Below, piece by piece: positions 10,737 to 39,473 of a stretch of 59,396 nt of DNA (position 1 is its first letter; every line of letters begins with the position of its first letter). Made by a program: the position numbers and the translations under genes. Location of the stretch: IMG/VR virus record IMGVR_UViG_3300044535_000237, positions 1 to 59,396 of that record, one strand, 5' to 3'. The notes beneath the pieces are model-generated. The model saw only the letters and a list, made by a program, of their open reading frames with translations. It had not been told where the DNA came from and ran no database searches. The stretch comes from a virus (taxonomy: Duplodnaviria; Caudoviricetes).

Positions 10737-10737
10737 A

Positions 10738-10992
10738 TTAGCACTTCCAAGCACGTAGTGATTTGTTGATACGACTGTTAGGGTCGTTTGCAGTCTTCGC
10801 ACTGGTCAGCTTCTCTTTCATGCCTTCCATGCGGGCACAGAATGAGTCACGTCGTGGGCCACCCTCGGGTTGGGGAGCCTTGAGTCCCGGCTTTCCGGGA
10901 TTGGCTTTATTATAAGAAGCTCGCCCCTTGGCGTTCAAGCCCCCCTTTTCCGATTTACCTTCTTTGCGTGTCCAAGCTGGTGTTTTAGCCAT
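10738..10992 (-). CDS. Small basic protein (DUF6321-like)
   Basis: W.RKEGK...GGLN.KGR.SY...LKAP...RR.SFCARM.G...SRINKSLR.W.C. Confidence 0.75.
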   Translation of the reverse strand: MAKTPAWTRKEGKSEKGGLNAKGRASYNKANPGKPGLKAPQPEGGPRRDSFCARMEGMKEKLTSAKTANDPNSRINKSLRAWKC

Positions 10993-13900
10993 TAGTCAAT
11001 CTCCCCTGTGCCACCACGGGCTTTGTCGAGTTCTTTTTCCATGCGTATTTGCAAGTCTTCAAGTTGCTTGTCCAGTGCTTCGTAATCGGGATAGCCTTTA
11101 CGCTCCTCTTCACGTTTTGCTTTGCGCATTGCGTCTTTAAATTCGCGTTCAACACGCTTTGAAATAACATCTTGAACAGCTTCAGATTCAATAACGTCGT
11201 AGTCATACATTTTTAATCCAAATGTTCTGGCTATAGCAAGATTGCTAACAGGTGCACCTGTGATGCCTGTTTTCTCATCTAGTATATCGTTTACTGCTTT
11301 GAGTTGGGTAGAACTAATTGCTGGTGGAGTCACAATATCATATGCAAACTTAGCAGCATTTTTAAATTTCTGCCATTCGGTATCCGTTGGTTGGTTCAGA
11401 GATTTACCTGTGTAGGGGTTTACACCTATGACTAGTCCTGCAATAGCCGAGACTATTGGGCCGCTTGGCGTGATTGCTCCGGGAATCCAAGACTGTCCCA
11501 TGAAGCCATTCGGCAAACCCTTAGCGGCAGAAGCCATCGGTACGTAGTCACCGAGACGGTAGTACACAGGGTTGTTTTCGTCGCCCATGAACGGGATGCG
11601 AATGTGCATGTAAGGGCCAATGCCAAACATGCGTTCGCGTATTTCTTTCGGGCCACGCTTGCGAGTTTCTTCGTCATCGTCACCTGCCGCAGAAGCCATG
11701 GCTACGTCAATGAGGTAATAAGCCGCCAAGACGTTAGCAATCTTCCAAGGTTGGTGCAACGCGATGCGTCCCATAACAGGAGCAATAGCATACGTCCATG
11801 ACACAAACGGCAAGAATGACTGGCGTGCAATACGGACTGCTTTAGAGTCGATGTCGTAGTCAAGGAATGCCTTGCGTGCAAAGGTACCCGCGTCGCTGAA
11901 GTTCTCTGCAGTGGGAGTTTTCTCACCACTACGCTCCTGCAATTCGCCGACCTTCTTCATGAACGCGGCTAAACGGAATACGTTATCCTCGGCGGCGTAC
12001 AGTTCGGACGCAATATTGTCTAACTTGTTTCCTGCCTTGGCTGCAAGTGCAACGCCCATCTGCGCTTTAGATTTCTCGTACCCAGTAAACATCTTCAGAC
12101 GTTGCATTAGCGACGTATCTGTTGGCTGTGCAAGATTTTCGTTCCATGCCTTATAGATGGCTTCCTTAACCTCAGCACTTGAGTAGTCGCCAAGCATCGC
12201 ACCAGAGTTCATGAACTGCGACATGATCGCAAGTTCACTTGGTGTCAAAGACTTAGCGTTTAGCTCGTATTTGGTAAACAACTTAGCCGCAGAAGCAATC
12301 GTGCTAACAGGAATGTCATGCATCATCGCCAAAGTAACGTTAGAGGCAATGTTAGTAATGTGCGTGCCGGGGTTGTAAACGGTCTTGGCTTTCTTAAACC
12401 AACGCATAGAAGCGTTGTACGCACGGAACGAAACCAATGGCTTGCGGTCAGCCATGTCAGTCATCGCACTCCACACAGGGCCGGGCATGTATTTGCCAGC
12501 TAACGCGCCGTAAGCTTCTACGTCAGGTATTTTTACCCATGTATTTGTATTGCGATATAAGTCGGCAATCTGTGGCGTCTTGGCTTCATCCTTGGAAACG
12601 CTTAACACTTGGTTAGGGTTGGGTGCCCGACCAAATATTTTCTTAACGGCCTCTAGTGAATCAAACGAAACACTTAGCTCTGTTGGCTTGCCGTCTTCAT
12701 AACCCAGCGTAGACGCGGCTTTAGAGAAGTTGCGTGACGCGTAGTTGTTAGCCAGTGCAGCCATGGTGTTACGCATAGCGTTAGCAAGCTCAGTGACTTT
12801 CTTTTCAAGGATTGCTTGTTGGGCCGTCATGTTAGATGTGAACTTATAGCCCTCACCTTTCTTGCCGGAGATACGCCATTGACGTGAGGGATCAACTGTA
12901 AAGCCTACGGGATTACCCGTAGTTTCGTAGCCCTTGATAGACATGTACCCTTGCGGGACTTGGGGGCCAGCAGGGTCTTTAATGTTGGGGCCAAACACTT
13001 GGTAGAAGGGGCCTGTGATGTCAACGTCACCGTTTTTATCTACGCCCATCCAGTGCTGAAAACCTTCGATGGTTTCTTCAAATCGATGCTGCAGACCAAT
13101 GATTTCACTTAGCTTACGCGCACCGAATGTGTGACTTGCAACTTGGTTTGTGTTACCCGCAAACAGCAAGGACTCAGAGAATTTAGTGTTCTCAAAGTAT
13201 GCACGGTCTTTAGCTGGAAGCTCAGAAATGTACATCGCCATGCTCTTCTCAATGGAGTCGGCAATTTCTTTGACCTTTGCAACATCTGGAAATTTATCCA
13301 GTGCTTTTTTATCGCCGTCAAGATAATCAAAGATTGCCTTTGCCTCGTCAGCACTACGTGACTCAACGAAGTTGGCCAACTGCTCCATACGTTGGTAGCC
13401 AGTGTTCTTGTCAACCTTGTACTTCTCCATGAGCTTGCTAGTGAAATCATTCACACCGAAGCGGGAGTTGATATAGGTGATGTAACGCTCTGCAGTTGGA
13501 AAGTCTTTGCGGATTTTGTCTGCTAATTTGCTAGATAGGTCGCCTACTTTTTGAGCACCACGTTGCCAGCCAACTAGGTCAAAAAACAACTTTGTGCTTA
13601 AGGCCGCGGGGGCAACCTTTTTGTTGTAGACAATATAGTCTTGGGCATTAACTTTCCCTTGCGGCGTGCCAGTGCTCTCTACAGCAGCTTCTAGAATGTT
13701 GCCTACAGCTTCACCTTTCTTGGCAGCGCCAGCCGCTTCGAGGAGCTTAAACGTGTTACCAATTACATCTGCAGCAACAGATGGGCGAACACCAACAAGT
13801 TTCTGCACTGTTGTAAGAATGGTTTGCCAGACGTTCTTAGCCGCATCATAGAAAGACTTGGGAGCCTCGGTGCTATCCATAGCTTCCAGTGCGCGACGGA

Positions 13901-16900
13901 AGTCGTTGAGCGTGTTGCCGTAAGAAACCAATTCCAAAACAGCGTCGAGTTCTTTCTTGTCCGTCATCAGTGCTTTGAGCACATCTTGAACACGTTTAGC
14001 GTCAGGGCTTAATTCACCTTTGTAATTTACAACGCGTTTAAGCGCCGCCTTCAATGCACGGACTTCCGGTGCATTAGGATTCTGATAAATATACCACTGC
14101 AATGCACCATGCAACGACTCGTGCAATGTGACTGCCGCAGACGCGTCTCGTTGGATATAGACTGTATTGGTTTTTGGATCATAGTAAGGTTTACCCTTAG
14201 ATATGAACTCAAGATTTGGTGCGGTATCGCTGTCGTACAAAGACTGAAATACACCCTTGGCAATTGTGCGTTCAAACGGCGTGCCGTGAGTCTGAATGTA
14301 ATTCAGCAAACCAAGAATGCCAGTAGAAGATTCACCTTTGCCAAACTTAGCGTAACCTAAAGCGGCTTTTTCTAGCGGAGTTTGCGTCTCACCGGCGGCA
14401 GTCGATTCTTTAGAACCACGAATTGGTGTTTGGCGAACAAAAGTTGCGTCAGATTCGCCTTGGAACATATTGTCCTTGGCTGCTCTCCAACCTTGCGACA
14501 GCATGGTGTCCATTTTTAAGAACGCCTGTGCAATACCATCTGCGCCTTCTTGGCCGAAGTCTTCGTTCATACCTTCATCAGTTGTCTGGGTATGCAACTT
14601 CTGTTGCACCATATCTTTGACAAGCTTGACAATAGCTTCAACATCTTTTGCATTGCCGTTAACTGCTTTACCCAAACCAGCAAGGGCGTCACGAGTCTCT
14701 CTTAGTTGATCTAGTGTTGTTCCAACGCGTTGGCTGGTCTTAGCCTTTATTTGCCCACGTTGTTGTGCAGGAGTTTGGCCAGCCAGTTTGGTAGGCTTGT
14801 AAATTGTTTCCCCATTCTCGCCTTTGATTGCACGTTCTGTAGGAATGCCGCGGAGCATGTTGCCACCCGCGTTGCTAAACTTGTAATACGCTTTTGCAAA
14901 CGCACGCACAGCGTCAGCAATTTGTTGCTCTCTGTCACTAATACCATCGACAGTTGCAGAAGGATTTAGCAATGCATCACGGATGTTTCGTAGGGCACTA
15001 ACAGTCAGAGATGTTTTGCCCGGTACAGCTTTTTTGTCAGCGCCTTCTACTCCAGCTTGCAATGGATTGTTCGTAACATTAGTCCGATTCGCAGTTTGAA
15101 GTGCCGCGGTCAAGCCCATTTCGTCTTGCTTTTTTTGTTCCGCGGTTTGTCGGTCAGCAACGCGATTAGCGGCTTGCTGCTCTTTGGCAGTCAAAGCCCC
15201 AGTAATTTTTCTACGTTCCGCAGACAACTGCATACCGGCACTACGTAGAGCGCTTTCGCGGTCTTGGTAATTAGCTATCTCTCGTGCACGACGGGTTCTG
15301 CCATCGTAGGTTTCCTGTGCCTTATTCCAAGCATCAGCTTGTTCTTGGCTAAGCGTTACCTCGGTATCGTTAATCTTTACGACTGATCCAACGGTGATGG
15401 GTGCTTTTTGTTTTTTCGTTTTTGTTTGCTGGGCTTGAGTGGTTTTAGTGCCATCTTGAATTGCAGGTGTAGTTACAGGAGTTGTTACGGGCGTAGAAGA
15501 AACGCCCCCCGCGACTGGCGCGGAGGGCAAAGGGGTGGCTTTAGCATCACCACCCAAAGGAGCAACGGCAACAGGACGCTCTGAAAGTTGGCTTGTAGGC
15601 CCAGTGAGTGACTCTTGGGGGCCCGGTCTGTCCAAACGCATGTTGCTGAACGGAGCGGAACGTGGTGGCACAAGGGATGTGCGAGCAATGGGTTGAATTT
15701 CTGCAGGTGTGATGGGTTGCATCACATCTGGGTTCATGATTCGGTCAAAGTCTGCTTTTGTTCCAACACCTTGTTGGGCATCAAACATGGCTTGTACTGC
15801 GGTACCAAGTTGCATTGCTTGAGCAAGCGGAGCCTCTTGTTGGTTGGCTTCTGCCTCTAGATTGCTGACAAGGCCACGGGCTTGGTCGCCTACATCTTGA
15901 ATGTTCAGCAACTGATCGCCGCGCTTACCAACAAAGTTTTGCCAACTCTTACCAACTTCTTTAACGGCTTCTAGACCTTGCTCTTTGCGTGTTAGCAAAT
16001 CTTGGTATTGCCCGCCAACGTCTTGCGCGGCCATGAACGAAGACAAACTTTTAGAAGCGTCAGCCTCAGACATTGGGCGCTCAGTAGCCATCCGCTTGTC
16101 AAACTCAGCTTGTGGGTCAACTTCAGAAAGTTTACGTCCATCGACATCTGCCTGTGTTTGTGTCAGGTCTTTGGGTGCTTCTTCAAGCGCCCTTAACGCA
16201 GAGTTGCGTTGATCTTCGAGAGCCAACTGCTCTGTAAACCATGCACCAACGTTCGTCTCAGGAACATTCTGTCTGCGGGCTTCCTTCATCACGGCTTCAA
16301 ATGCCTGTGCGCGGATTTCAGGAGGAGCATCTTCGCCCAACGCGGCCTTTAAAGATTCTGCTCGGCGAGCACGCGATGCATGACCACCCAGTGCAAATGG
16401 GCCAAGCAACATTGTCAGACCTGCACCGCCTAACGCTGACTGCCGTGCAATCTCATAGGGGTTTTCGTCTCCTGCCGCGCCGTAAGCGCGTTCAACCGCG
16501 TATGTGCCTAAATCTTGAGCAACCTCTGTACTGGGCTGCACTAGCATGTTGATACCCATGCTTTTTGCAAAAGGCTTCAGAACACTGGTATCAGTCATCC
16601 TTGCCGCAACACCAGCCGTAGTGCGTTCACCCATGCCCAACAATGGGGACAATCCTTTAATAGCGCGACCGCCAACGAATGTAGCGGCACCTTCACCAAC
16701 ACCTTGGATTAGACCAACACGGCGAGCAGCCTCTGTTGCTGCTTGTGGGTCACCAGTTTGCTCTAATACTTTGTCATAAGTTCCTTGCGCAGACGATGTG
16801 CCGAACAATAACGCCGCCGCCGCGGGAGCGATGACTTGCCCACCGGGAACAAAAGCTAAAGGTAAGGTAGCCGCAACAGGAGCCAACCCACGAGCACCAG

Positions 16901-17243
16901 TAGTAAGTGCCTCGCTGACAAGCCCCCGATTACGGTTATCGGGAATATATGCAGGAGCGCGGGCTTCTGCCGCTTGTGACATTTCACGGCCATACTCAGG
17001 TGCAACACCGGTGTACTGAAGGCCCTGTCCAACCATCTTGGGTAGGTCAACTACTGCACCGCCCACAGCCTGCCGACCCATCTCTGCTAGCGTGCCACGA
17101 GGTTTAAAACCTAGATAGCTTGCCGTAGATTCAAAACTCTTGCCAACGCGCCCTGCGTAGTCCCGGATTAACTCGTCGTCAGACAGGTCACGCATGGAGG
17201 ACGGCACCGCCGCCCGCAAGTCTTCAAGGTTATAAATCGGCAT
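10992..17243 (-). CDS. Large internal virion / DNA ejection protein (2083 aa) with zincin-like HExxH domain
   Basis: Size and position at the end of the tail module; Ala/Gly-rich hydrophobic N-terminal region; YYDP..NTVYI...HESLH motif; polyvalent-protein-like C-terminus. Confidence 0.75.
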   Translation of the reverse strand: MPIYNLEDLRAAVPSSMRDLSDDELIRDYAGRVGKSFESTASYLGFKPRGTLAEMGRQAVGGAVVDLPKMVGQGLQYTGVAPEYGREMSQAAEARAPAYIPDNRNRGLVSEALTTGARGLAPVAATLPLAFVPGGQVIAPAAAALLFGTSSAQGTYDKVLEQTGDPQAATEAARRVGLIQGVGEGAATFVGGRAIKGLSPLLGMGERTTAGVAARMTDTSVLKPFAKSMGINMLVQPSTEVAQDLGTYAVERAYGAAGDENPYEIARQSALGGAGLTMLLGPFALGGHASRARRAESLKAALGEDAPPEIRAQAFEAVMKEARRQNVPETNVGAWFTEQLALEDQRNSALRALEEAPKDLTQTQADVDGRKLSEVDPQAEFDKRMATERPMSEADASKSLSSFMAAQDVGGQYQDLLTRKEQGLEAVKEVGKSWQNFVGKRGDQLLNIQDVGDQARGLVSNLEAEANQQEAPLAQAMQLGTAVQAMFDAQQGVGTKADFDRIMNPDVMQPITPAEIQPIARTSLVPPRSAPFSNMRLDRPGPQESLTGPTSQLSERPVAVAPLGGDAKATPLPSAPVAGGVSSTPVTTPVTTPAIQDGTKTTQAQQTKTKKQKAPITVGSVVKINDTEVTLSQEQADAWNKAQETYDGRTRRAREIANYQDRESALRSAGMQLSAERRKITGALTAKEQQAANRVADRQTAEQKKQDEMGLTAALQTANRTNVTNNPLQAGVEGADKKAVPGKTSLTVSALRNIRDALLNPSATVDGISDREQQIADAVRAFAKAYYKFSNAGGNMLRGIPTERAIKGENGETIYKPTKLAGQTPAQQRGQIKAKTSQRVGTTLDQLRETRDALAGLGKAVNGNAKDVEAIVKLVKDMVQQKLHTQTTDEGMNEDFGQEGADGIAQAFLKMDTMLSQGWRAAKDNMFQGESDATFVRQTPIRGSKESTAAGETQTPLEKAALGYAKFGKGESSTGILGLLNYIQTHGTPFERTIAKGVFQSLYDSDTAPNLEFISKGKPYYDPKTNTVYIQRDASAAVTLHESLHGALQWYIYQNPNAPEVRALKAALKRVVNYKGELSPDAKRVQDVLKALMTDKKELDAVLELVSYGNTLNDFRRALEAMDSTEAPKSFYDAAKNVWQTILTTVQKLVGVRPSVAADVIGNTFKLLEAAGAAKKGEAVGNILEAAVESTGTPQGKVNAQDYIVYNKKVAPAALSTKLFFDLVGWQRGAQKVGDLSSKLADKIRKDFPTAERYITYINSRFGVNDFTSKLMEKYKVDKNTGYQRMEQLANFVESRSADEAKAIFDYLDGDKKALDKFPDVAKVKEIADSIEKSMAMYISELPAKDRAYFENTKFSESLLFAGNTNQVASHTFGARKLSEIIGLQHRFEETIEGFQHWMGVDKNGDVDITGPFYQVFGPNIKDPAGPQVPQGYMSIKGYETTGNPVGFTVDPSRQWRISGKKGEGYKFTSNMTAQQAILEKKVTELANAMRNTMAALANNYASRNFSKAASTLGYEDGKPTELSVSFDSLEAVKKIFGRAPNPNQVLSVSKDEAKTPQIADLYRNTNTWVKIPDVEAYGALAGKYMPGPVWSAMTDMADRKPLVSFRAYNASMRWFKKAKTVYNPGTHITNIASNVTLAMMHDIPVSTIASAAKLFTKYELNAKSLTPSELAIMSQFMNSGAMLGDYSSAEVKEAIYKAWNENLAQPTDTSLMQRLKMFTGYEKSKAQMGVALAAKAGNKLDNIASELYAAEDNVFRLAAFMKKVGELQERSGEKTPTAENFSDAGTFARKAFLDYDIDSKAVRIARQSFLPFVSWTYAIAPVMGRIALHQPWKIANVLAAYYLIDVAMASAAGDDDEETRKRGPKEIRERMFGIGPYMHIRIPFMGDENNPVYYRLGDYVPMASAAKGLPNGFMGQSWIPGAITPSGPIVSAIAGLVIGVNPYTGKSLNQPTDTEWQKFKNAAKFAYDIVTPPAISSTQLKAVNDILDEKTGITGAPVSNLAIARTFGLKMYDYDVIESEAVQDVISKRVEREFKDAMRKAKREEERKGYPDYEALDKQLEDLQIRMEKELDKARGGTGEID

Positions 17244-17255
17244 TGTCGCTCCAGA

Positions 17256-19040
17256 TTATCGACGTGGCAGTAAGTCATCATACCAAGGTCTATCTAACCC
17301 TGTATTACCGCCTAAAAACTGATAGCCTAATTTATTCAATTCACTGATAGACATAACTCTTGTTGTGCCGTCTGGCATTTCAACGCTGTAGCCTGAGTTA
17401 CCAGCACGACCCAAAAGTTTCGTGTTGCCTGTGTTTAATGCAGGGGCGGAAGAAGTTTTAGTTAGCCCTTGCGCAGATGCAGGTGCGGCAGGAGCAGGGC
17501 TACCTTCATATGGATTAGCACCTAGGCTAACACCACCAGCCGACTGCGCCGCACGTTCCCGCACCATGCGAAGAAGGTGGCTAACGCCCATCTGTTCGGC
17601 CATAGCGTCTTTCTCACCACCAGACAAACGAGCGTTGCGTGGTTCTTTAATCCACTCGTTATAGGCTTTAAGTTGTTCTTTTTCTACTTCATCCATAGCT
17701 CTAGGAGCTTTGCCTTCTGGCGTTACACGAAGTTGAGCGCCGGGTTTTGCAACCAGCATGTTGTACTGTTTCTCAAGAGCTCTGCCTTTGGGGCCGTTCT
17801 GTTCAGCTTCTGTAAGCGCAGAAAAGTCTTCCATAAGCTTCTTAGCTTCTTTGGTGTTTGCCGCGGTATCGTCCAAGTCTTTTATTTGTCTGTTGACTAA
17901 ATTACCACGAATTGCATTAAGACCAGATGTAGACGCAGAAGCTGCAGACGAAGCCTTTGATGCTGCAATAGCAGCAGCTTCTTTTTCAATGGTTAACTTT
18001 TGAATTGTCCAGCCTAAAGGATTACCTTTGGCTTTTTCAATCATGTCTTGTGCCAGTGCCTGAAAGCCGGGAATCTCTTTTGTGTCAGCGTAAATCTGTG
18101 TGCCCTTAAGCAAATCTTTGCCATAGAAAATACCCCAACCGCCTTTTACTGGACGTAACTCGGGGACAATCTTGTCGTCGGGATCGGGGTCAGCAACATT
18201 TTTAGCAATGTACGCGTTTAACTTTTCGGGGGAACTAATTGCTTCACGGACTTCGCGTTCCATCTTTGCGACTCGTTCGTCGGCAATCTTTTTATTAATA
18301 CCGAGGCTATCGCCAACAAAGGCAGTAAGCACAGTAGGGTTAGCACCCATATCTGTTGCAGCTTGATAAATTGCAGGCAAGTCAATAGTTTCACCTGCTG
18401 CCAACTTAACTCCAAGCGCAGAAATAGCGTTACGATTTGCTTCGCCTTCTTTAAGTGTTCTCTTGGTTTCGCCTATGCGCAGACCGTATTCTTCTTCGGC
18501 GCGAGCATCTAAACGTTCAGCGCGAGCGTCAGATTTCTCTTGGCGGCCAAGGTCATACGCACGTTCACGCGAACGCACAGCATCTTTTGTAAGGCCATAC
18601 TTAGCATAAATATCAGCTTCTTGTTGAGTGCGCTGAGACACAGGCATAGTCATACCGGCCGAGCGAGCAGTATCTATCTGTTGAGGCGTAAAACCACGAG
18701 CAAAGCCCGCACCCGCCGGTGCCTGAGCAGGAGGAGCCATACTGGCTTGTAAACCGGTGCGCATACCGGGAACGCTTGTGTAGTCGCCATCAGCACCAGA
18801 CACTCCAGTACCCATCGGAACAGGCGCAGGTTGACGCATCATGGACGGCTGTGGAGCTAAACCCTCAGCGGGAAGAGCCGCGTAGTTAGGTGCCATCTCT
18901 GGCATGTTTTCAGTACGGCCAATCTTAGCGATTTCTTCCTGAGCAAGCTTTTCACGGCGTTTGGTATCTGAGCTTTCGTAAGCATCGAGCCAACCAGCCG
19001 CTATGCGATCGCCAGCGATAAGTCCTTGTGCAAATGACAT
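17256..19040 (-). CDS. Internal virion/ejection protein
   Basis: MSFAQGL..G N-terminus, helical and low complexity; lies between two other ejection-type genes. Confidence 0.6.
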   Translation of the reverse strand: MSFAQGLIAGDRIAAGWLDAYESSDTKRREKLAQEEIAKIGRTENMPEMAPNYAALPAEGLAPQPSMMRQPAPVPMGTGVSGADGDYTSVPGMRTGLQASMAPPAQAPAGAGFARGFTPQQIDTARSAGMTMPVSQRTQQEADIYAKYGLTKDAVRSRERAYDLGRQEKSDARAERLDARAEEEYGLRIGETKRTLKEGEANRNAISALGVKLAAGETIDLPAIYQAATDMGANPTVLTAFVGDSLGINKKIADERVAKMEREVREAISSPEKLNAYIAKNVADPDPDDKIVPELRPVKGGWGIFYGKDLLKGTQIYADTKEIPGFQALAQDMIEKAKGNPLGWTIQKLTIEKEAAAIAASKASSAASASTSGLNAIRGNLVNRQIKDLDDTAANTKEAKKLMEDFSALTEAEQNGPKGRALEKQYNMLVAKPGAQLRVTPEGKAPRAMDEVEKEQLKAYNEWIKEPRNARLSGGEKDAMAEQMGVSHLLRMVRERAAQSAGGVSLGANPYEGSPAPAAPASAQGLTKTSSAPALNTGNTKLLGRAGNSGYSVEMPDGTTRVMSISELNKLGYQFLGGNTGLDRPWYDDLLPRR

Positions 19041-19051
19041 GTCTGTTCCCC

Positions 19052-19945
19052 TTAACCAAATTTACCTTGACCCATGCCGTAGCCGACAAATCTGCCAGCA
19101 CCGCCTGCAATAGTTCCATACAGACCTTGCTCCGCTGCGTTGGCTGCATCCATGCTTCTAGAAGTACCAGCAAACATATTGCCGTAACCTTGGATGCGTT
19201 GGCCGGAGCCTGTCATCATGGTGTTAAATGCCGGAGTTACCGCGCTAGAGTATTGTGAGCCCGGAGCCATAGCAGTGTTAATACCGGCTGTGCCGGACGC
19301 ATTAGCTGCACCATAAGCTGCTGTAGAAGCCCCAGCCAAATTACGACCGAGACCAGTAACGTCCAGCTTGCGAGCATAGGCAGTGTTTTCCGCCTGCGTA
19401 CGAGCGTTGTTCATACCACCGGCACGCATTGCAGCTTGATTTAAAGTGCTTTGGTTTTGCAAACCAGCAGCAGCGCCAGAGTTAGGGTTAACCCCACGTC
19501 GCTCAGATTCACGAGCAACCATACCTTGCGTAAGACCAAATGCCTGTGCAGCGTCTTGGGATGCTTTAGCCGCCAGTTGGTTGCGGTAGGCTTCAGTGTC
19601 AAAGTTCTGCGCGTCGGCAACTAAGCCTTGTTCTAGAGGGCGGAATGTTTGTGTTTGGTAGTCGTAGTAATCGCGAGCTTGTCTCATCTGCTCTTCTTGA
19701 GCTTGCAACTGCTGATCGTACACGCGCTGAGCCAAAGGCTTCATTTCGTCGTACTGTTGACGTGCAAACCCAAGCTGTTCTTGACCTAATTTATAAGACA
19801 AATCAGCTGCGTAATCAGCGGATTGGGTTAGCCCTTGGGCTGCTCGTTCATTGGCGGCGGAGGCTGCTTTAGATGCGCTCGAGGCTTTGCTCGCTGCGTA
19901 AATTGTCGCTCCACCCATCACTACCGCTGCGGCTATTGCACTCAT
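19052..19945 (-). CDS. Internal virion/ejection (pilot-like) protein
   Basis: Hydrophobic Ala/Gly N-terminus, Gln/Ala coiled coil, R.GVNP.SG motif, Gly-rich C-terminus. Confidence 0.7.
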   Translation of the reverse strand: MSAIAAAVVMGGATIYAASKASSASKAASAANERAAQGLTQSADYAADLSYKLGQEQLGFARQQYDEMKPLAQRVYDQQLQAQEEQMRQARDYYDYQTQTFRPLEQGLVADAQNFDTEAYRNQLAAKASQDAAQAFGLTQGMVARESERRGVNPNSGAAAGLQNQSTLNQAAMRAGGMNNARTQAENTAYARKLDVTGLGRNLAGASTAAYGAANASGTAGINTAMAPGSQYSSAVTPAFNTMMTGSGQRIQGYGNMFAGTSRSMDAANAAEQGLYGTIAGGAGRFVGYGMGQGKFG

Positions 19946-20826
19946 ATGTCACTCCTTCGACTCGCAATTAAAGCAAGTGTTACTCCATAGTCTGTGGTCA
20001 ATTCCTCGCCAGATTCGATATCTCGCAAAGCAGTTAAAAATAACAACCCACTTACAACTTCAAATTTACAATTTGGAAACGCTGCATGGTTAGAGTACCT
20101 ACCAGCTAACGAACGTTTATTGTCCAGTGTTGCAGGACAGATAACCTGCCCGTATACGTAGTTACGCGTAGCAAAAAGGCCGTCACCTTCAATAGAAGAT
20201 TTTCGGACTTCAACACCATCTAGTGGTGTGCGGTCTAATGTAGATTCATCTTCAGAAATCTGACGAACTGATTCTTTTGTAAAACCAAAGTATTCAATAG
20301 CTCGTATAAAACTAGCTTGCCCGACTAACCGGTCGTACTCTGCAAAGGTGTTGACTGTGATTGCGTCGACAATCGTGTCAGCGTCTTCACCAAGATCAGG
20401 GTGCACATTAACCCAAATAGAGTCTTCGTTGGCATAAGCTAGCTTTTTTGTACCTGCGGGCGACGAGAACATTGCGGGCGCTTTGATACGCTTGGGGCCA
20501 TCTACAGACAAAAACGTCAGGTCACCTTTAAGGCAAATATTTAAGTGCTCAGTCATGTGCACTTTACCAACAAGCATTGTACCCTTGGGAATAAAAATCT
20601 CTCTAGCGTACACCCCACCGGAAAAAACATTGCGAACGGGGATGTCAGCTTGCGGTTGCTCAAGCATAAATGCTTGGAGGTCGTCGATCTTGTCCTTGAG
20701 TTTCTGCTCACGTATTGCCAAGGCTGCGCCGTTTATAGGAGCAAAAAGGTCGACGGGAAAGCCTTCTGGCAACCCTTCGGGGTAGCAGACTTCAAAGGTA
20801 CTAGGTTCAATGACGTCTAATTCCAT
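19942..20826 (-). CDS. Cupin-like domain fused to SET-domain (putative protein-lysine methyltransferase)
   Basis: N-part FSGGVYAREIFIPKG..LVGKVH..EH (cupin-like). C-part S.IEG.GLFATR, RYSNHA..PNC, ALRDI..GEELT.DYG are the canonical SET motifs. Start probably MELD at 20826. Confidence 0.85.
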   Translation of the reverse strand: MELDVIEPSTFEVCYPEGLPEGFPVDLFAPINGAALAIREQKLKDKIDDLQAFMLEQPQADIPVRNVFSGGVYAREIFIPKGTMLVGKVHMTEHLNICLKGDLTFLSVDGPKRIKAPAMFSSPAGTKKLAYANEDSIWVNVHPDLGEDADTIVDAITVNTFAEYDRLVGQASFIRAIEYFGFTKESVRQISEDESTLDRTPLDGVEVRKSSIEGDGLFATRNYVYGQVICPATLDNKRSLAGRYSNHAAFPNCKFEVVSGLLFLTALRDIESGEELTTDYGVTLALIASRRSDI

Positions 20827-20840
20827 GTGCGTATTATGTC

Positions 20841-21251
20841 TTATTGTGGAGGAGTTGGCCAGACTACATTCTGCGGATACCCTGACTGCTGCGGAATGTC
20901 CCGCAATGCTTGCCGGTAGACCTGCCACTGGTTGTAAACATTATCGCCTAAACGTGTTTTTGATGAAAGCGTGTCAGTCCAGTCGGATTGCTCAAGCAAA
21001 CTAGCTCGCTTGCCTTTAATGGCAGAAGAACTAAATATCCAAGTTTTGGTTTGGAAGTCAAACATGTGCAACGCAGAAGGCTGCTCGGGCTGCTTAACAA
21101 CAACTTCGCCGTCTAGGTAGTAGTTAATATCGTAGCTGCCGTCTACAAACACGCTGCCTTCTGGAGTATTCATATCCAAAACTTCTTGACTTTGGCTGTC
21201 AACAAAGCCAGTAAAACGGCCATTACTAGAGTCAAAAAAACATCGTCTCAT
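20841..21251 (-). CDS. Phage tail (fibre) assembly chaperone-like protein
   Basis: C-terminal R..LL..SDWT...W..YRQALRDIPQQ.G.P..V.WP..P signature. Confidence 0.8.
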   Translation of the reverse strand: MRRCFFDSSNGRFTGFVDSQSQEVLDMNTPEGSVFVDGSYDINYYLDGEVVVKQPEQPSALHMFDFQTKTWIFSSSAIKGKRASLLEQSDWTDTLSSKTRLGDNVYNQWQVYRQALRDIPQQSGYPQNVVWPTPPQ

Positions 21252-23422
21252 CGATAGCCTTTCATAACAATTACGTCTGTGATGTTTAGTACGCTGCTAG
21301 CAGTCTCGATGTTTGCGTAAGCGTGAGACACAGCAATGCTATGAGAGCCCGCAGACAAATAGTATTTTTTAATCATAATTTTAGGGACTGCTGAGTAAAT
21401 TTCCGTGCCTTGTCGTGCATCAATAACAGACCCATCAAGAAACAAAGTTGTTGTGCTGTCGTCGGACGGATAAGAGTTTGTAAAAAACGAAGACACGCAA
21501 TGAATATACACATTACCCGCGCTTGCCATGTTAAAACTATAATTAAAGACGTTAGTTCCTGTGTTGTTTCCGCCATTGCTAGTTAGCGTATGGTTAAACT
21601 GATCCATTGTTACAACGGATTCACCAGCAATGTTAATAGTGTTAACAGCGTCAACTGCAGCAGCAGTTAAAACACCGCCAAAAGAAGCATTTCCGTTGCT
21701 ACCGTCAAGCACAAAAGTTGGCGTTCCATCAGACTTAAAAGCGGCCATACCAGCCGAAGTTATACCAATGCCGTAACCACTGGTGCGTATGCCAGAGGAA
21801 TTCCAAGTAAGTGAGCCTACTGCAATACCACCGCCACCGGTTAAAACGCTGCGGGAATCTGTGCTAATTTTATTTGATAGTCCAGCAAGAGCGGAATTAG
21901 CAGTTGCGTTTGCCGTGTTAGCTGTAGAAAGTGCGCTAGTGGCGTTTGAGTTTGCTGTGTTAGCGGTTGACTGCGCGGCGCTTGCTGCGCTACTTGCACT
22001 ATTGGCGGTTGATTGCGCGGAGCTTGCTGCACTACTTGCGCTATTAGCAGTAGATAAAGCTGTAGAGGCATTACTAACAACTGTGCTAGCCGCCGTGCCA
22101 CTAACAGTGCCGGTAACGTTACCAACAAATTCACTGCTACCGGCGTTAAGAATAATGTTACCAGATGCGTCTTTAATCGTAAGTCCACGAGCATCAATCT
22201 TGCCCGCAGCAATAGAACCATCAACAAGCAAATTGCCATTAATAATGACGCCAGAGTCTGTCCACGCAGAGTTGTTCCAGTATTTAGTTTGGACGTAAGT
22301 GGGCGGAGAAGCGCTGTTACTAATTGTAACTGTGTCGCCAATAACAAGATGGTTGTTGTTAACCGCCGAACCCGCGTTTCCAAGAGCTGTCCAAACAGCT
22401 TGCCTTGCCGTTGTATCGCTCCAAGCAGAAGCAGTCACAGAAAGATTTAATGAACCGCGCAATCCATTTGCAAGAGTCTTACCGCCCGTGTCCACCTTCA
22501 TAGTACCTCGAACATAAACGTTTGTGTTCATGTAGATACCGTCAGCGTCAACACCAAAGGGGACGAGGTTGTTGTCGGGAGTAGTTGTTAGGCCGCCACT
22601 ATAGTTTGGCGCGACAATTGCAAATTTATCTGCGGAAATAATAAACGCAGAGGATGGTGTTCCGTTAATCTCGGTAGCAGCAATACCAAACCCAGCAAGA
22701 GCACCGCCCGCTTGAACTTTAAGAGTGTACTGAGCACGCAGACCAGTTGTAAAGTTTGCTTGTGTAGTAAGTGTTGACTCTAGGACAGCACGACCCGCTG
22801 TGCCGTCTTGATAGTAGTTTCCAAGGCTAGATTCAAGTTGAGTCACTTTTACAGCGGTAGCAGAAGTTGAAGTAGCTACAGCAGAAGTTAACTCACGAAC
22901 TCCGGCTGCGCTAGTCCCAACAGCGGCAGTAACTTCTTCAACTGCAATAGCCAACGAACGATTGCTATCTTGAATTAATGTCTCGGTTCTGCGAATGTCA
23001 GCGCCTCGTGCAGCGGCTTCATCAGCAATGCTTTTAAGCAAAATAGAACGAACTTCAACAGCTAAGTCGTTAAACCTATTTGGGTCATCGAGGCGACGTT
23101 GCAAGTCTGTGTAAAGGCGCGTGCTCTTAAGTTCAGCAACAAACTGATCGATTGCAACTGCAGCCGTTAAACCGCCCCCCAAATCAATTAAAACTTCGCC
23201 CGGAGCAGGAGTCTTTGATACGGCTAAATCAGTTAGTGACTTAGTAGCATCTTCAAGCTCACGAAGAGTTACCGCTCGTTCAAATCTGTTTCCGCGTGTA
23301 CCTTCACGCGTCTCAAGGCGTTCTGCAACAGCACTCATCCAATCCCGAAGAGATGGGTCTTGCGCATTAACAGGAGGAAGCGCAGGAAGGCGTACCGGGC
23401 CAGTATCACGACGAACGGTCAT
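21248..23422 (-). CDS. Tail tip/fibre protein (DUF1983-like segment)
   Basis: AQYTLKVQ.GG..AGFGI...S.F...ADKFAI motif; I.G..L.DGSI.A.KI; Ser/Ala/Thr/Asn heptad stretch. Confidence 0.75.
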   Translation of the reverse strand: MTVRRDTGPVRLPALPPVNAQDPSLRDWMSAVAERLETREGTRGNRFERAVTLRELEDATKSLTDLAVSKTPAPGEVLIDLGGGLTAAVAIDQFVAELKSTRLYTDLQRRLDDPNRFNDLAVEVRSILLKSIADEAAARGADIRRTETLIQDSNRSLAIAVEEVTAAVGTSAAGVRELTSAVATSTSATAVKVTQLESSLGNYYQDGTAGRAVLESTLTTQANFTTGLRAQYTLKVQAGGALAGFGIAATEINGTPSSAFIISADKFAIVAPNYSGGLTTTPDNNLVPFGVDADGIYMNTNVYVRGTMKVDTGGKTLANGLRGSLNLSVTASAWSDTTARQAVWTALGNAGSAVNNNHLVIGDTVTISNSASPPTYVQTKYWNNSAWTDSGVIINGNLLVDGSIAAGKIDARGLTIKDASGNIILNAGSSEFVGNVTGTVSGTAASTVVSNASTALSTANSASSAASSAQSTANSASSAASAAQSTANTANSNATSALSTANTANATANSALAGLSNKISTDSRSVLTGGGGIAVGSLTWNSSGIRTSGYGIGITSAGMAAFKSDGTPTFVLDGSNGNASFGGVLTAAAVDAVNTINIAGESVVTMDQFNHTLTSNGGNNTGTNVFNYSFNMASAGNVYIHCVSSFFTNSYPSDDSTTTLFLDGSVIDARQGTEIYSAVPKIMIKKYYLSAGSHSIAVSHAYANIETASSVLNITDVIVMKGYR
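21900..22080 (-). repeat. Intragenic tandem repeat encoding STANSASSAASxAQ-type heptads
   Basis: Protein ASTALSTANSASSAASSAQSTANSASSAASAAQSTANTANSNATSALSTANTANATANSAL; about 42-bp imperfect DNA unit. Confidence 0.75.
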
Positions 23423-25977
23423 AAACCTTGTAACTCCGTAGTATTGCCAGCTAAGCTAATTTTTGTAATGCGAACAGTAGCTTCAACTTGTACTTCGTAC
23501 TCAAGCCAACGGCCAGAAGGAAGGCGCAAAGGAAGAACATCCGAAATCGTGATTGTGTGCACAAGTGCGCCATCGCCATATAGTTTAAACGTCACTGGAT
23601 TTCCAGATGTCTGTTCACCAAAAACCTGAACCCATGCAAGAGTGGCCTGTACCGGAAACGTAGCCTTCATAGACTTCCATGTACCTGTGCGGTAAGTTGC
23701 GCCGCCATACACTTTCTGGATGCTTGTGCCGTTGGCAATGTAGAGTTGATCGTCAACTTTATTAGCGTAAGCTGCAGTAGCCGCCAGATCAAGTCTAGCT
23801 AATTTAGAAGATGCTACGTTAAACGTCAAACAACCAGCAGTGCCGTTGTTAAAAAACAAGTAATATACGTCCTCGTGAGCTTCTGCAAACATGGTTGTGG
23901 GCGACAGAGCTTGCCAGTCCTCGCGAGTGTACATACCCTTGGTAACGACTCGAATCCCATTAGGATCAGCAAGGCACAGGCCATCAGGAGAGGCGTACAA
24001 AACTCCGCCCTGCATAGACACAATGGAACGCTTAGACGCACAAGATTGCACGCTGTCTAGTTTCTGAGACGACATGGACGCAGAGTTAGCGCCAGAAATA
24101 AAATACGGATTGCCGAGAGTGCCAACAAACACAGTCTGACCAAATACGCCAAGCCCAACAATAGGGTGCTCTGTAGAAATTTGATACTCTACCGGCCACG
24201 CGTATGGGACGTAAGGCTCACAGAACGCAACAGTGTTGTCAAAGAACCCCGCCATTACGCCATTGGGCAAACCGACAAAACCACGTATATACGGGTTAGT
24301 ACCTACAACGGGTTTAGGATAAGAATCGCTTTGGCCGTCCATGCGATAGGGAGGCTCAGCCCACGTAACTGTTGGACAGTTTTCGCCTAATTGACTGCCA
24401 GTTTTAGTGTCCGTGTACGTTGCAGATGTAACAAGTAACTCTTCTACAAATTGAAAACCGGTAGCGGTAGAACCTGTACTGCTACGATAGATACGCCACT
24501 TCACAATGCTTCGAGTTGTATACGCTTCGCCTGACGAAGAGGCAGGTCGACCAATAGCCACAGAGTCGTTCTGGTCTAGTTCAATAAGCGCGGACACAGG
24601 ACTTGGTTCAGACTCTTCGCCAAAGTCAGTAACAAAGGTAACAATGTAGAAACGAGATTCAACTTTACGAACAACTGTTTCGCCAACAAACTTTGTGACG
24701 CCGCCCTGATTAACGATGTACGCAGAAATTGCGGTAACGTTTTCTGTAAGTTTTTTCCATCGTGCCAGCAGAGCGGCTTCCATAGTCTGCGTAGCAACAC
24801 GAGCCCGTGCTTGAATCTCTTGTACTCGAACGTTAAGCGTATTTCTGTCGTCGACGTTGGTTGTCAGTGCTGTGTTATACGCTGCAAGATCAACGTTATA
24901 TGTAGTAACAGCGGCGTCGTAAGTAACCCATGCAGCCGTACGTTGCCCCGTAGCGGTATTAATTTCGTCGGCAACGGTTGGTTTTACAGGAGCAGTTGGG
25001 CGCGAAAGAAGTGCCCCAAATGTGGCGGCAGAAAGAAGTCTATAGAAGTCTTTTGCTGCATCATCTAGCGCATCACGTTGAGACTTAGCTACTTTATCGG
25101 GGTTAAGGTCATTGGCAATGTCAGCCACAATCAAAGCAATTGCAGCATCGGTAAACACTTGCGTTCCGACTTTAGCTGGGCCAGCTTCTGCACCAAACTG
25201 AATAGCTTGAATAGCCGTAGTTAACGTTCCCTGCGTCAATCGGAAAGTAAACGGCAAAGCGGTAAGCGGTACATAAATTGTTGAACCAGATAAAGTTGCA
25301 CCTAGTTTTTCAAGGTCTAGCGCAAGGCCAATAGTAGAGGAGTTACTGACCGCAGCATACAAATTCCAATGGCTGCTAGATGGGATACCAGTAGGAAAAG
25401 ACAAGCTGTTAGCTGTGTACGGGCCACCATAAATAGTAGTTCCGGTAAAACGTGAATTTGGTTCGTTGGCAACTGGGTCTAACGTGCTTGCAATAATAGC
25501 CAAACGAATGGCCTCTGCAGCAGGGCCGTACAGAAATATGTTAGCTTCTTCTGTTGTAAATTCTTCAGTAGTATTTTTTGTAGTTGTAGGCTGCACTGGG
25601 CGCGGTACGCCAAGAACTCGATCAGAGCCGTTAACATCTACAAGTCGTGGGCGAGCTGAGCCATCGTCAATTGTGAAATAAGTTCGCTCCGACCGTTCGT
25701 CATCAATTTGGCCTTTGACATAGCTGCGCTCTACAGTACTGGATATCCATCCAGTAGTAACGTCAGAGTTAAATGTGCCATCGGCCTTGCGAGCAAACCG
25801 GTGTAGGGTCTTAGTACTGGCAGAGCACGAAGCAACAGTTAAGTCTGTTTTGACAGGACGAAATTCGTTAATGCTTGTAAAAAGGTTGCGGTTTTCCTGA
25901 GCAGCGCTCTCTGGCAGGGCGCGTGCTGATATGGAGGGCATCTCCCCACCAAAAGTATCTACTTTAATAATAGCCAT
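23419..25977 (-). CDS. Tail nozzle / stabilisation (tubular B-like) protein
   Basis: F.GE.P....R.LP...AQ...N N-terminus; Y..TFVT.FGEES.PSP; FCEPY.PYAWP..Y; Q.C.SKRSI; YASPDGL. Confidence 0.75.
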   Translation of the reverse strand: MAIIKVDTFGGEMPSISARALPESAAQENRNLFTSINEFRPVKTDLTVASCSASTKTLHRFARKADGTFNSDVTTGWISSTVERSYVKGQIDDERSERTYFTIDDGSARPRLVDVNGSDRVLGVPRPVQPTTTKNTTEEFTTEEANIFLYGPAAEAIRLAIIASTLDPVANEPNSRFTGTTIYGGPYTANSLSFPTGIPSSSHWNLYAAVSNSSTIGLALDLEKLGATLSGSTIYVPLTALPFTFRLTQGTLTTAIQAIQFGAEAGPAKVGTQVFTDAAIALIVADIANDLNPDKVAKSQRDALDDAAKDFYRLLSAATFGALLSRPTAPVKPTVADEINTATGQRTAAWVTYDAAVTTYNVDLAAYNTALTTNVDDRNTLNVRVQEIQARARVATQTMEAALLARWKKLTENVTAISAYIVNQGGVTKFVGETVVRKVESRFYIVTFVTDFGEESEPSPVSALIELDQNDSVAIGRPASSSGEAYTTRSIVKWRIYRSSTGSTATGFQFVEELLVTSATYTDTKTGSQLGENCPTVTWAEPPYRMDGQSDSYPKPVVGTNPYIRGFVGLPNGVMAGFFDNTVAFCEPYVPYAWPVEYQISTEHPIVGLGVFGQTVFVGTLGNPYFISGANSASMSSQKLDSVQSCASKRSIVSMQGGVLYASPDGLCLADPNGIRVVTKGMYTREDWQALSPTTMFAEAHEDVYYLFFNNGTAGCLTFNVASSKLARLDLAATAAYANKVDDQLYIANGTSIQKVYGGATYRTGTWKSMKATFPVQATLAWVQVFGEQTSGNPVTFKLYGDGALVHTITISDVLPLRLPSGRWLEYEVQVEATVRITKISLAGNTTELQGL

Positions 25978-26009
25978 TGGTTGTCCTTGCGTCTAGGCAC
26001 ATTGTAGTA

Positions 26010-26624
26010 TTAACCGCCCAATACAGCTATAGCATGCGTAATGTGTTTAATGCGATCCTCAAGCCCAATCGTACCGCCGTTAATCCGCTTTGTCATTGTT
26101 AAAAAATCCCGAGTATCGGCGTATTGGTTAAGGTTATGGGTTTGCCAAAACCAGCCCGCGGTTTGCGCGGCGTACTTGGGAGTACGGACAAGTTCGGGCT
26201 CCATTACAAAGTCCACACCGAGGGCTTTGCCAGCGTGGAAAAAATTGCTATGCCCAGTTAACTGTAAAAATCCGGAGCCACGAAACCTGAACCCATCTCC
26301 AGAAGCCTCATCTCGATTGCCCATACGGTTCCCGTAAATGCGATTGGCGATCTTACGTGGCTGTTTCTCATAGGCAGCAGCTTCCTCGGGTGTGAAGCCC
26401 CATGCGCGTTTAGGCGTCCGCGGGAACAGTTTGAGTAGGGTAGCGGCGCGGTAGTTCAGGTTCTCTTCCATGATCTTAAAGTTACCGCATTCGTGGCCGC
26501 ACTGACCTATCCAGCTGGCTTGTTGTGGAGCCGTAAAGATATTGAACTTATCAAAAGTTTCGTTAAACGCATCTGCAAGAGATGGGTCTATGTGCATTTG
26601 TTTTAGTTGGTCAGGACTTACCAT
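26010..26624 (-). CDS. Endolysin, glycoside hydrolase family 19
   Basis: Q.GHE.G.F...EENLNY, IAN..Y..RMGN, DG.RFRG.G.LQLTG..N, A.WFW, TKRINGG..GL.DR. Confidence 0.93.
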   Translation of the reverse strand: MVSPDQLKQMHIDPSLADAFNETFDKFNIFTAPQQASWIGQCGHECGNFKIMEENLNYRAATLLKLFPRTPKRAWGFTPEEAAAYEKQPRKIANRIYGNRMGNRDEASGDGFRFRGSGFLQLTGHSNFFHAGKALGVDFVMEPELVRTPKYAAQTAGWFWQTHNLNQYADTRDFLTMTKRINGGTIGLEDRIKHITHAIAVLGG

Positions 26625-27108
26625 TTAAGAGGTTCCTTACTTCGTTGTATGAATCTACGCAAGCATTTAGTGCAACAGTATTACGATCGCCTTGGGCAAC
26701 TATTTCCGCGATGGCGTCGATTGTTGCTCTTTCGGCGTCAGAAGCTGTATCAGTCGGTCTGTCAGGTTCACGGGCTGCTTCTGTATTTGCGCTGGCAACG
26801 GGGGAACTTGCGGGGGCTTGTACGTTACTTGGGGCGCAGAGGCGCAGCTTGCCAGCACGATTGGCAACAGCAAGAGCAGAAGTTTTTTTGTTGATGGCAT
26901 CATTAGCCTCCTGTAATTTGGCGGATTGTTGATTAAGTTTTTCACCCAAGTTTTGCTCGATTTGACGAGCTTCATCATTCTTTTTGGCAATGGCAATCTT
27001 CATATCATTATCCCGCTCCAACCACCCGTAATGATGGCCAACACGGTACGTACCGAACAAAGATACAAGAACGCCAACAATTAACCAAGGGAGTGGGATA
27101 GGTAACAT
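26611..27108 (-). CDS. Rz: Rz-like inner-membrane spanin
   Basis: N-terminal TM helix, coiled coil, C-terminal A..GD......LNAC...Y; adjacent to the endolysin. Confidence 0.8.
   Translation of the reverse strand: MLPIPLPWLIVGVLVSLFGTYRVGHHYGWLERDNDMKIAIAKKNDEARQIEQNLGEKLNQQSAKLQEANDAINKKTSALAVANRAGKLRLCAPSNVQAPASSPVASANTEAAREPDRPTDTASDAERATIDAIAEIVAQGDRNTVALNACVDSYNEVRNLLNGKS
26700..26903 (-). CDS. Rz1: Rz1-like outer-membrane lipoprotein spanin embedded in Rz (alternate frame)
   Basis: MMPSTKKLLLLLLPIVLAS|C lipobox followed by Pro-rich ASAPQVTYKPPQVPPLPAQ; lies entirely within Rz. Confidence 0.8.
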   Translation of the reverse strand: MMPSTKKLLLLLLPIVLASCASAPQVTYKPPQVPPLPAQIQKQPVNLTDRLIQLLTPKEQQSTPSRK

Positions 27109-34159: not shown

Positions 34160-34161
34160 GA

Positions 34162-39466: not shown

Positions 39467-39473
39467 GTTTACC

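Follow-up and report, generated by a model that had tools for sequence, protein, structure and literature searches.

The podovirus record IMGVR_UViG_3300044535_000237 of the IMG/VR collection (Duplodnaviria; Caudoviricetes), whose full length of 59,396 nucleotides is called the window in the following, carries a gene whose 294-residue product joins a small cupin barrel to a minimal SET domain. An initial annotation, made from the DNA letters without database searches, had read this gene as a cupin–SET fusion, and the reading is now borne out for the SET part by Pfam, by a profile search of the PDB and by fold matches, and for the cupin part by an AlphaFold2 model searched with Foldseek. We conclude that the cupin family is a further occupant of the podovirus internal virion protein A (IVP-A) slot, that is, of the position held by T7 gp13 and P22 gp14, by place and not by family. 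The main value of these observations is that they offer a testable hypothesis for the function of this slot.

Lysine methyltransferases with a SET domain have their known representatives in eukaryotic chromatin, among a few bacterial effectors, in archaea and in viruses of the giant or algal kinds. Our literature search found no studied SET methyltransferase in a tailed phage, no paper on a phage cupin–SET family, and no report of methyl-lysine or lysine methylation on phage ejection proteins. In the parts available to us, the genome paper of Rhodoferax phage P26218 mentions no methyltransferase, tail fiber, RSK1 or P26218_30, and the paper on PBR31 mentions no SET domain, methyltransferase, cupin or short tail fiber. 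It should be mentioned that the UniProt and GenBank pipelines already label a few proteins of the family “SET domain containing” or “vSET-like”, so that the SET domain call itself is not new. What is new here is that the podovirus IVP-A slot holds a minimal SET domain, devoid of the i-SET insert and linked to a cupin. A SET gene keeps a constant position among the virion-assembly genes of many uncultured podoviruses.

A minimal SET domain joined to a cupin barrel

The open reading frame (ORF) of the cupin–SET gene runs from an ATG at position 20826 to a TGA at 19944–19942, with 15 nt between the stop codon of the upstream gene and this ATG. A longer frame beginning with GTG would run 88 nt into the upstream gene; the ATG is taken as the start because the homologues of 293–294 aa begin at the same methionine. 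The whole protein is a full-length match to phrog_34170, a family of unknown function (E 6e-49), and a megablast search of positions 17000–26000 of the window against the phage collection found no near-identical DNA.

Both sequence comparison and the predicted fold confirm that the C-terminal part of the protein is a SET domain. The Pfam model PF00856 matches residues 234–281 with 38.4 bits (cut-off 22.4; E 1.8e-9) and is recovered in a six-frame search of the record as well (35.1 bits). When the PDB was searched with phmmer, the SET domains of MLL1/MLL2 were matched at E ~2e-4 and the chlorovirus protein vSET at 0.016; with a profile of 34 family sequences the values were 3.2e-15 for the MLL1 SET domain and 4.1e-9 for vSET, and protein lysine methyltransferases accounted for 60/60 among the matches listed. 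The AlphaFold2 model of the 294-aa protein has a predicted local distance difference test score (pLDDT) of 92.6 and a predicted template modelling score (pTM) of 0.81. Its residues 201–288, compared with known structures by VIA, match MLL1 and EZH2 at Z 10.7, SET8 at 10.1 and SET7/9 at 9.7; with the MLL1 structure 7w6a, 83 residues are aligned at a root-mean-square deviation of 2.4 and 35% identity. A comparison of a structure model with SET and cupin folds had been proposed as a check in the initial annotation, and both folds were recovered, the former at the VIA Z of 10.7 and the latter by Foldseek at E ~1e-6.

The SET motifs quoted in that annotation, including the catalytic tyrosine, are present in the window protein as G214-D-G216-L-F-A, R243-Y-S-N246-H247 and E275-L-T-T-D-Y280. 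Hidden Markov models (HMMs) were built for both modules, and 236 stored family proteins were aligned, 226 of which have the SET part and reach down to ~30% identity. In these SET-bearing relatives S210, G216, N246, H247, E275 and Y280 are identical throughout (226/226), G214 is kept in 225/226 and R243 in 220/226. Because the motif residues are invariant down to ~30% identity, the conservation argues for an active enzyme, namely a minimal, catalytically competent protein-lysine methyltransferase dependent on S-adenosylmethionine (SAM).

The domain is remarkably short. The spacing between GxG and NH is 28–33 residues in 226/226 relatives, and the core from S210 to Y280 measures 68–82 residues in the SET-bearing proteins. 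The absence of a cysteine-rich post-SET region, also claimed at the outset, holds for the family at large: the 14 residues after Y280 in the window protein contain no cysteine, and the tail behind the catalytic tyrosine has a median of 14 residues and is cysteine-rich (≥3 Cys) in 0/214 of the relatives with the order cupin>SET. It could be argued from the very short core (28–33 residues between GxG and NH) and the lack of a post-SET region that the SET part is a pseudo-enzyme, inactivated by deletion of the i-SET and serving as a peptide-binding module only. However, the SAM-binding and catalytic residues are invariant in 226/226 relatives down to ~30% identity, which is not expected of a dead enzyme; we consider this explanation very unlikely, and of the four alternatives weighed in this article it alone is clearly disfavoured, by motif conservation. 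The missing i-SET is treated here as a variant feature and not as an exclusion from the SET family, and so short a core is of interest for defining the minimal catalytic SET unit.

The N-terminal part is confirmed, on the predicted model, as a small cupin barrel. A Foldseek search of the PDB returned many cupin_2 structures (E 1.3e-6 to 1e-5), and VIA matched residues 57–162 with cupins at Z 7.0–7.9, values below 8 being those for which the tool warns that Z alone may reflect a mere common arrangement. No cupin model was matched in a Pfam search of the 294-aa protein with E up to 10. Relatives carry the Joint Genome Institute (JGI) label “quercetin dioxygenase-like cupin”, and in the Atlas Cupin_2 is carried by only 15–33% of the members of related viral clusters.

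The initial annotation had also taken histidines of this part for a cupin-like motif and had proposed a possible hydroxylase as one half of a bifunctional enzyme. The fold stands, and the conserved metal site does not. Metal-dependent cupin enzymes, JmjC/2OG hydroxylases included, bind the metal through His and Glu or Asp residues in motifs of the type HxHx3-4E...H or HxD/E...H. By our reading of the alignment, the classical metal-ligand positions of cupins correspond to K88, H90, H94 and K128 of the window protein, and they are variable. Among the 236 relatives, H stands at position 88 in 91 proteins, K in 86 and R in 30; at position 90 there is H in 179 and Q in 52, and at position 94 H in 180, whereas position 128 is always basic (K 178, R 50) and never H. 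Histidines at positions 88, 90 and 94 occur together in only 32/236 relatives. The residues that are conserved lie elsewhere in the module (R75 in 233/236, G101 in 236/236 and W138 in 217/236; also K127/K128, E134 and D135). Because the metal-ligand positions are degenerate, a conserved hydroxylase or dioxygenase function of the cupin is unlikely, and a binding role would suit it better.

These features also bear on the suggestion that the protein is a small-molecule enzyme, in which the SET part would methylate a metabolite, as the SET-like BurB does with methionine, and the cupin would bind or convert a small ligand. BurB (9l4t) is indeed a fold match at Z 7.9 and the cupin dimethylsulfoniopropionate lyase DddK (5tfz) at Z 7.7, and the conserved R75 and K127/K128 could bind an acidic ligand. 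On the other hand, the SET part is closer to the protein-lysine methyltransferases in both fold and sequence, as described above for MLL1 and for the profile matches, the metal site of the cupin is not conserved, and there is no evident reason why such an enzyme should keep a fixed place before the gene for internal virion protein B (IVP-B) in three podovirus lineages. We regard it as highly improbable.

Arrangement of the two modules in relatives

Among the phages in GenBank, the cupin is found in 68 records and the SET part in 8 records (6 different phages), where it is always fused to the cupin; the SET part searched alone against phage records gave no close stand-alone copy. In a collection of 5.8 billion proteins, PF00856 is present in 78/88 clusters of near-length homologues. 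A profile search of 1.84 billion representatives gave 19,016 matches at E ≤1e-3 and 1,280 at E ≤1e-30, and all of the best 150 of these 1,280 are two-domain proteins.

The order of the two domains is not fixed. The 236 stored proteins comprise 214 with the order cupin>SET, 12 with the order SET>cupin and 10 with the cupin only, and the 12 permuted proteins, in which the pre-SET helices and the SET domain are followed by a helix and the cupin, all stand among the best 150 matches (P0118, P0121, P0131, P0136, P0153, P0154, P0169, P0191, P0202, P0203, P0206 and P0223; the order was read directly from the sequence in 3 and from HMM coordinates in the other 9). For each module of all 12, the nearest relative by identity is a cupin>SET protein, which suggests, at the level of sequence, a repeated rearrangement of the modules. 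Module trees were built with FastTree (for the cupin, 125/130 columns, with 31/230 inner branches well supported), leaving out P0085, which is apparently frameshifted or chimeric. On these poorly resolved trees parsimony gives 11 changes for the 12 permuted rows with the cupin and 10 with the SET domain, and 7 changes for 9 cupin-only rows; because of the poor resolution, nearest-neighbour identities were used instead of counts of events. Two scans of viral contigs for permuted forms returned only cupin-only or partial matches.

Cupin-only proteins with 46–60% identity to the window cupin, over its N-terminal leader as well, break off immediately ahead of the pre-SET helices. The helical pre-SET segment is thus missing from them, and it travels with the SET domain in the permuted SET>cupin proteins; the leader (residues 1–35) is missing from distant relatives. 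Judged from these alignments, the cupin is the constant element and the recurrent occupant of the slot, and the SET domain is an add-on that has been gained, lost and permuted, and yet kept beside the cupin. The occurrence of both fusion orders is classical evidence that two modules work together.

Some further architectures were met with in passing. The protein P0094 (545 aa) has ~270 extra N-terminal residues before its cupin–SET part. The BFVD entries A0A6J5L8Y2 and A0A218ML49 are, respectively, a “SET domain containing protein” of 128 aa (matched at E 1.2e-5), which stands alone and comes from an uncultured tailed phage, and a 971-aa SET-containing protein of an uncultured virus; other SET architectures may exist in prokaryotic viruses.

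The slot before the first ejection protein and the proposed role

As described in the available part of Hardies et al. 2016 (PMC4819975), the slot before IVP-B in podoviruses holds a small non-structural gene that belongs to one of several interchangeable families, among them a GNAT-like one (T7 IVP-A); standard IVP-A homologues stand in the syntenic position in P22 and epsilon15, phiRIO-1 gp39 represents an alternative IVP-A family, and T7 gp13 is needed for morphogenesis and does not remain part of the virion (there citing Kemp 2005). The remark of the initial annotation that other podoviruses carry a small GNAT-like gene near this position agrees with that description. In the window, the cupin–SET gene is likewise small, follows the tail hub genes and lies directly upstream of the first ejection gene. 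Its location between a tail chaperone and the first ejection protein, with an ATGA overlap, had been stated before and is upheld by the Phage_tail_APC and phrog_8003 matches of the two neighbours (Table 1) and by reading of the sequence itself; the gene junctions in P26218 and in Pseudoalteromonas phage PH1 are as tight as this overlap.

Comparable layouts are found in other phages. In RSB3 (Autographiviridae), ORF39 encodes the cupin only and is immediately flanked by tail tubular protein B on one side and by a putative internal virion protein on the other. In the P22-like Shewanella phage X14, one further gene separates Hc3 from the cupin-only gp38, behind which the next structural genes follow; this is the position of P22 gene 14. 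In P26218, PH1 and MW202744, the fusion gene comes after a gp10-like or stabilization protein and before three genes, whose products in P26218 have 246, 462 and 613 aa, as compared with 229, 471 and 609 aa for P22 gp7/gp20/gp16. The cupin-only gene of the IMG/VR contig L019 follows ORFs of 470 and 149 aa in the same layout. In loci L016 and L017 (14-8426), on viral contigs of 45–66 kb, a ~2100-aa ORF and then ORFs of ~400 and ~120 aa precede the cupin-only gene, unlike the window.

In all nine cupin-bearing loci examined, that is, the window, seven further loci and L019, the gene after the cupin gene is IVP-B-like and its product begins with a hydrophobic N-terminus of the MSxxAxAIxGxAVxGG type; P22 gp7, added for comparison, differs. 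The RSB3 counterpart of the 297-aa protein encoded downstream in the window is annotated as a putative internal virion protein. Because the next gene shares this N-terminus in all nine loci, the cupin gene and the IVP-B-like gene are, as far as sequence tells, a conserved pair. A survey of gene neighbourhoods, another check named in the initial annotation, placed both cupin-only and cupin–SET genes in the slot, and DUF2824, the Pfam family of P22 gp14, was absent from six cupin-bearing records (5/5 phage records searched and this genome). Two proposed homologies were rejected by hhalign: P22 gp14 as a cupin homologue (probability 1.5%; gp14 is a DUF2824 protein) and phiRIO-1 gp39 as a member of the cupin–SET family (probability 0.1%). 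The sole PDB sequence match of P22 gp14 is a “putative glyoxalase” (E 0.008), so that its GNAT likeness rests on Hardies 2016.

The names given to the cupin in databases lead in another direction, namely that the protein modifies, or belongs to, some other part of the virion (tail fibre, hub, or portal/core) and, in the extreme case, is itself a short tail fibre or adhesin. Residues 40–165 are matched by phrog_12032 (“short tail fiber protein”) and phrog_24280 (“tail fiber adhesin”), RefSeq uses the same names for RSB3, X14, BA3, VvAW1 and phiAp1, and the window gene does come after a tail fibre gene and its chaperone. The model, however, is globular and consists of a small cupin and a SET domain, neither of which resembles a fibre, and in the other 8 cupin-bearing loci the neighbour is the IVP-B-like gene, not a tail fibre or chaperone. 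No experimental basis was found for the names, and the terms “mass spectrometry”, “structural protein” and “tail fiber” do not occur in the available part of the X14 paper. This alternative seems to us decidedly unlikely.

From the position of the gene and the conservation of its two modules, we propose that the protein is a factor of the assembly stage: through its cupin it would dock on the ejection proteins, and through its SET domain it would methylate their lysines. For this proposal we hold the chances of being right and of being wrong to be about even. The two-module protein would fill the podovirus IVP-A slot, which follows the tail hub genes and precedes the first ejection protein. 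Its cupin would be a non-catalytic docking or chaperone module, first of all for the IVP-B-like neighbour, and its SET domain would methylate lysines of the phage's own ejection or internal virion proteins late in infection or during assembly, before or during packaging. The first candidate substrate would be the 297-aa product of the translationally coupled downstream gene, and the cupin–SET protein itself would stay out of the virion. If the ejection proteins are indeed methylated, this would be a rare post-translational modification system for the internal proteins of a phage, and it would supply a concrete, testable idea for the long-open question of what the GNAT-like T7 gp13 and P22 gp14 do. 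The cultured carriers, Pseudoalteromonas phage PH1 and Rhodoferax phage P26218, make a test feasible.

The 297-aa protein contains only 7 lysines, of which K69 and K193 are invariant in 8 close homologues. A complex prediction for the cupin–SET protein, SAM and the 297-aa protein was returned as “weak support”, with a score of 0.55 against 0.00 for the best control. The mark set by the tool is reached by 58/80 solved complexes and 2/110 mismatched pairs, and the band of scores ≤0.60 holds only 7 of the 80 solved complexes together with both passing mismatches. At least 26% of the contacts are shared between the runs, the partner has a pLDDT of 43–45, and the run used its own alignments and a riding ligand, unlike the calibration; as a modelling result, the prediction adds little.

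Several points weigh against our proposal. The interface prediction is weak and the fold of the partner uncertain. When the candidate lysine is compared with the presence of SET in a weak alignment (16–22% identity), the window, PH1 and MW202744 have lysine, and the SET-bearing P26218 has arginine. Close relatives without SET exist, so that methylation would not be essential to the function of the slot. In solved SET enzymes the i-SET serves as one of the walls of the substrate groove, and it is missing here (GxG and NH are 28–33 residues apart, and 83 aligned residues correspond to 123 residues of MLL1), so that the activity could be altered or partner-dependent. A model of the permuted protein P0131, made from a 12-row alignment, has a pLDDT of ~90 inside the domains and a pTM of 0.50, with which the arrangement of the domains is not confident. 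The non-virion status is borrowed by analogy from T7 gp13, a member of an unrelated family, and in general we infer the substrate, the activity and the docking role.

The main competing view is that the cupin–SET protein is a packaged effector, loaded with the ejection proteins and injected so as to methylate nucleoid, translation or defence proteins of the host at the start of infection. The characterised non-eukaryotic SET proteins mostly target the chromatin proteins of another organism or of a host, and two of them, vSET and Legionella LegAS4, are among the structural matches. This counts in its favour, as do the location of the gene inside the ejection-protein module and the accessory and patchy occurrence of SET, as expected of a host-specific add-on. 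On the contrary side, the described occupants of the slot are non-structural (PMC4819975, in its available part), and SET is tied to a cupin that occupies this slot on its own in podoviruses of unrelated lineages and hosts. Because the cupin alone fills the slot across unrelated lineages, a phage-internal partner is favoured over a host target, and we hold the packaged effector to be rather unlikely.

Returning to the assembly-stage factor, its scheme can be extended to a wider and speculative one, in which the IVP-A slot is a cassette for interchangeable lysine-modifying enzymes, with GNAT-like acetyltransferases in T7/P22 and a cupin-tethered SET here, and lysine capping on ejection proteins is a general maturation step. 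We would give this generalization only a small chance of being right. If it were true, lysine capping could keep the ejection proteins competent for assembly and ejection, it could shield their lysines from host proteolysis or ubiquitin-like conjugation, and the cupin would be a substrate-docking subunit that works alone or recruits an enzyme.

Genomic setting and known systems

The virus record is complete or nearly so (99% by CheckV) and represents a podovirus of ~59 kb, whose portal is 36% identical to that of Rhizobium phages of the RHph_TM3_14A type and ~25% to that of HMO-2011-like phages. On the minus strand, the genes follow one another in the order terminase, portal, scaffold-like protein, major capsid protein and SU10-type adaptor; then three paralogous tailspike-like genes, a lysis cassette and the 852-aa tail hub or tubular-tail-B-like gene; and finally a 724-aa fibre, the 136-aa chaperone, the cupin–SET gene, and the genes for proteins of 297, 594 and 2083 aa. 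The features of the locus are collected in Table 1.

Table 1. Features of the cupin–SET gene and of the neighbouring genes (positions in the window; residues are those of the 294-aa protein).
Feature	Position	Strand	Basis or remark
Cupin–SET gene	19942..20826	-	294 aa + TGA stop
N-terminal leader, residues 1–35 (CYPEGxPxGFPVDLFAP motif)	20722..20826	-	Kept in close relatives, cupin-only ones included
Cupin module, residues 36–165 (helix 36–55 + small beta-barrel ~57–145)	20332..20721	-	Model, Foldseek, VIA
Helical pre-SET segment, residues 166–200 (G181, SEDES motif)	20227..20331	-	Model helices 161–179, 184–191
Minimal SET domain, residues 201–285	19972..20226	-	Pfam, PDB profile search, VIA fold match
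SET key codons	G214/G216 20179–20187; N246–H247 20086–20091; Y280 19987–19989	-	Motif reading
ATGA stop/start overlap of cupin–SET gene and downstream gene	19942..19945	-	Direct sequence reading
Tail hub / tubular-tail-B-like protein, 852 aa, opens the module	23419..25977	-	phrog_511, E 1e-130
Tail-fibre assembly chaperone, 136 aa, upstream of cupin–SET	20841..21251	-	PF16778 Phage_tail_APC, E 9e-18
IVP-B-like (first ejection) protein, 297 aa, downstream; candidate substrate or partner	19052..19945	-	phrog_8003 “virion structural protein”, E 5e-32
Presumed second ejection / internal virion protein, 594 aa	17256..19040	-	Position and size only
Presumed large ejection / internal virion protein, 2083 aa, module end	10992..17243	-	Position and size only

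The tblastn matches of the 852-aa hub include proteins labelled “head closure protein 3” or “head-closure protein”, and the 136-aa chaperone also matches several PHROG tail-fibre-assembly families. Neither the 594-aa nor the 2083-aa protein has a Pfam or PHROG match, and no lytic or other domain was recognised in the latter. The three tandem paralogous genes at 29826-36258 on the minus strand (698–752 aa), each with repeated matches to phrog_6002, phrog_23837 (virion structural) and phrog_4636 (tail spike), have the look of a tailspike-like cassette in three copies. The structural block encloses the lysis genes (endolysin, phrog_181, and an Rz-like spanin; 26010-27647, minus strand), which have the tailspike-like genes on one side and the tail hub gene on the other. 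A 253-aa protein at 38774-39535 (minus strand) matches the Pfam family SU10_adaptor (E 3e-30), and a 152-aa ORF near its gene bears a weak, sub-threshold resemblance to Gp80, the fibre protein of GP4 (E 0.0015); by sequence, the virion may be built like those of SU10/GP4-type podophages. A scan of positions 10500-27000 gave 19 promoter and 26 terminator sites, where shuffled sequence led one to expect 16.7 and 19.2, and was uninformative, and a tRNA scan of the window found none.

With regard to known proteins, the cupin module resembles small bacterial cupin_2 proteins of a single domain (TM1459, HP0902, PpnP and KdgF) in its small double-stranded beta-helix barrel and differs from them in that the phage family has not conserved the HxHx3-4E/H...H metal site. 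For the SET part, the SET domains of MLL/SET1, SET8 and EZH2 are the best matches in sequence and fold (for MLL1, at the profile E and VIA Z given above). Over the aligned range, however, the solved eukaryotic domains span ~120 residues as compared with 88 here, and they carry an i-SET, a post-SET and regulatory partners. The first tyrosine of the MLL1 motif ELTYDY is, in the phmmer alignment, a threonine in the window protein and V, T or I in most relatives; the Tyr/Phe position of this motif tunes the number of methyl groups added.

The closest parallel among viruses is vSET of Paramecium bursaria chlorella virus 1 (A612L; PDB 1n3j/3kma), which methylates histone H3K27. It is likewise a virus-encoded minimal SET domain with GxG, NH and ELxxDY and without cysteine-rich pre- or post-SET regions, and Foldseek aligns the window SET domain with it at a TM score of 0.62, normalised to vSET, and 25% identity. 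Unlike the phage protein, vSET is a stand-alone protein of 119 aa from a eukaryotic virus, whereas the phage SET domain has a shorter middle part, forms a fusion with a cupin, belongs to a virion-assembly module and has no histone substrate available.

Among the occupants of the slot, phiRIO-1 gp39 is likewise a non-GNAT protein and is unrelated and much smaller (96 aa). T7 gp13 and P22 gp14, which are GNAT-like according to Hardies et al. 2016, share with the cupin–SET protein the slot directly before IVP-B and a fold of enzymes that modify lysine side chains; they have no homology to it, and their presumed chemistry would be the transfer of acetyl groups, whereas that of the cupin–SET protein would be the transfer of methyl groups.

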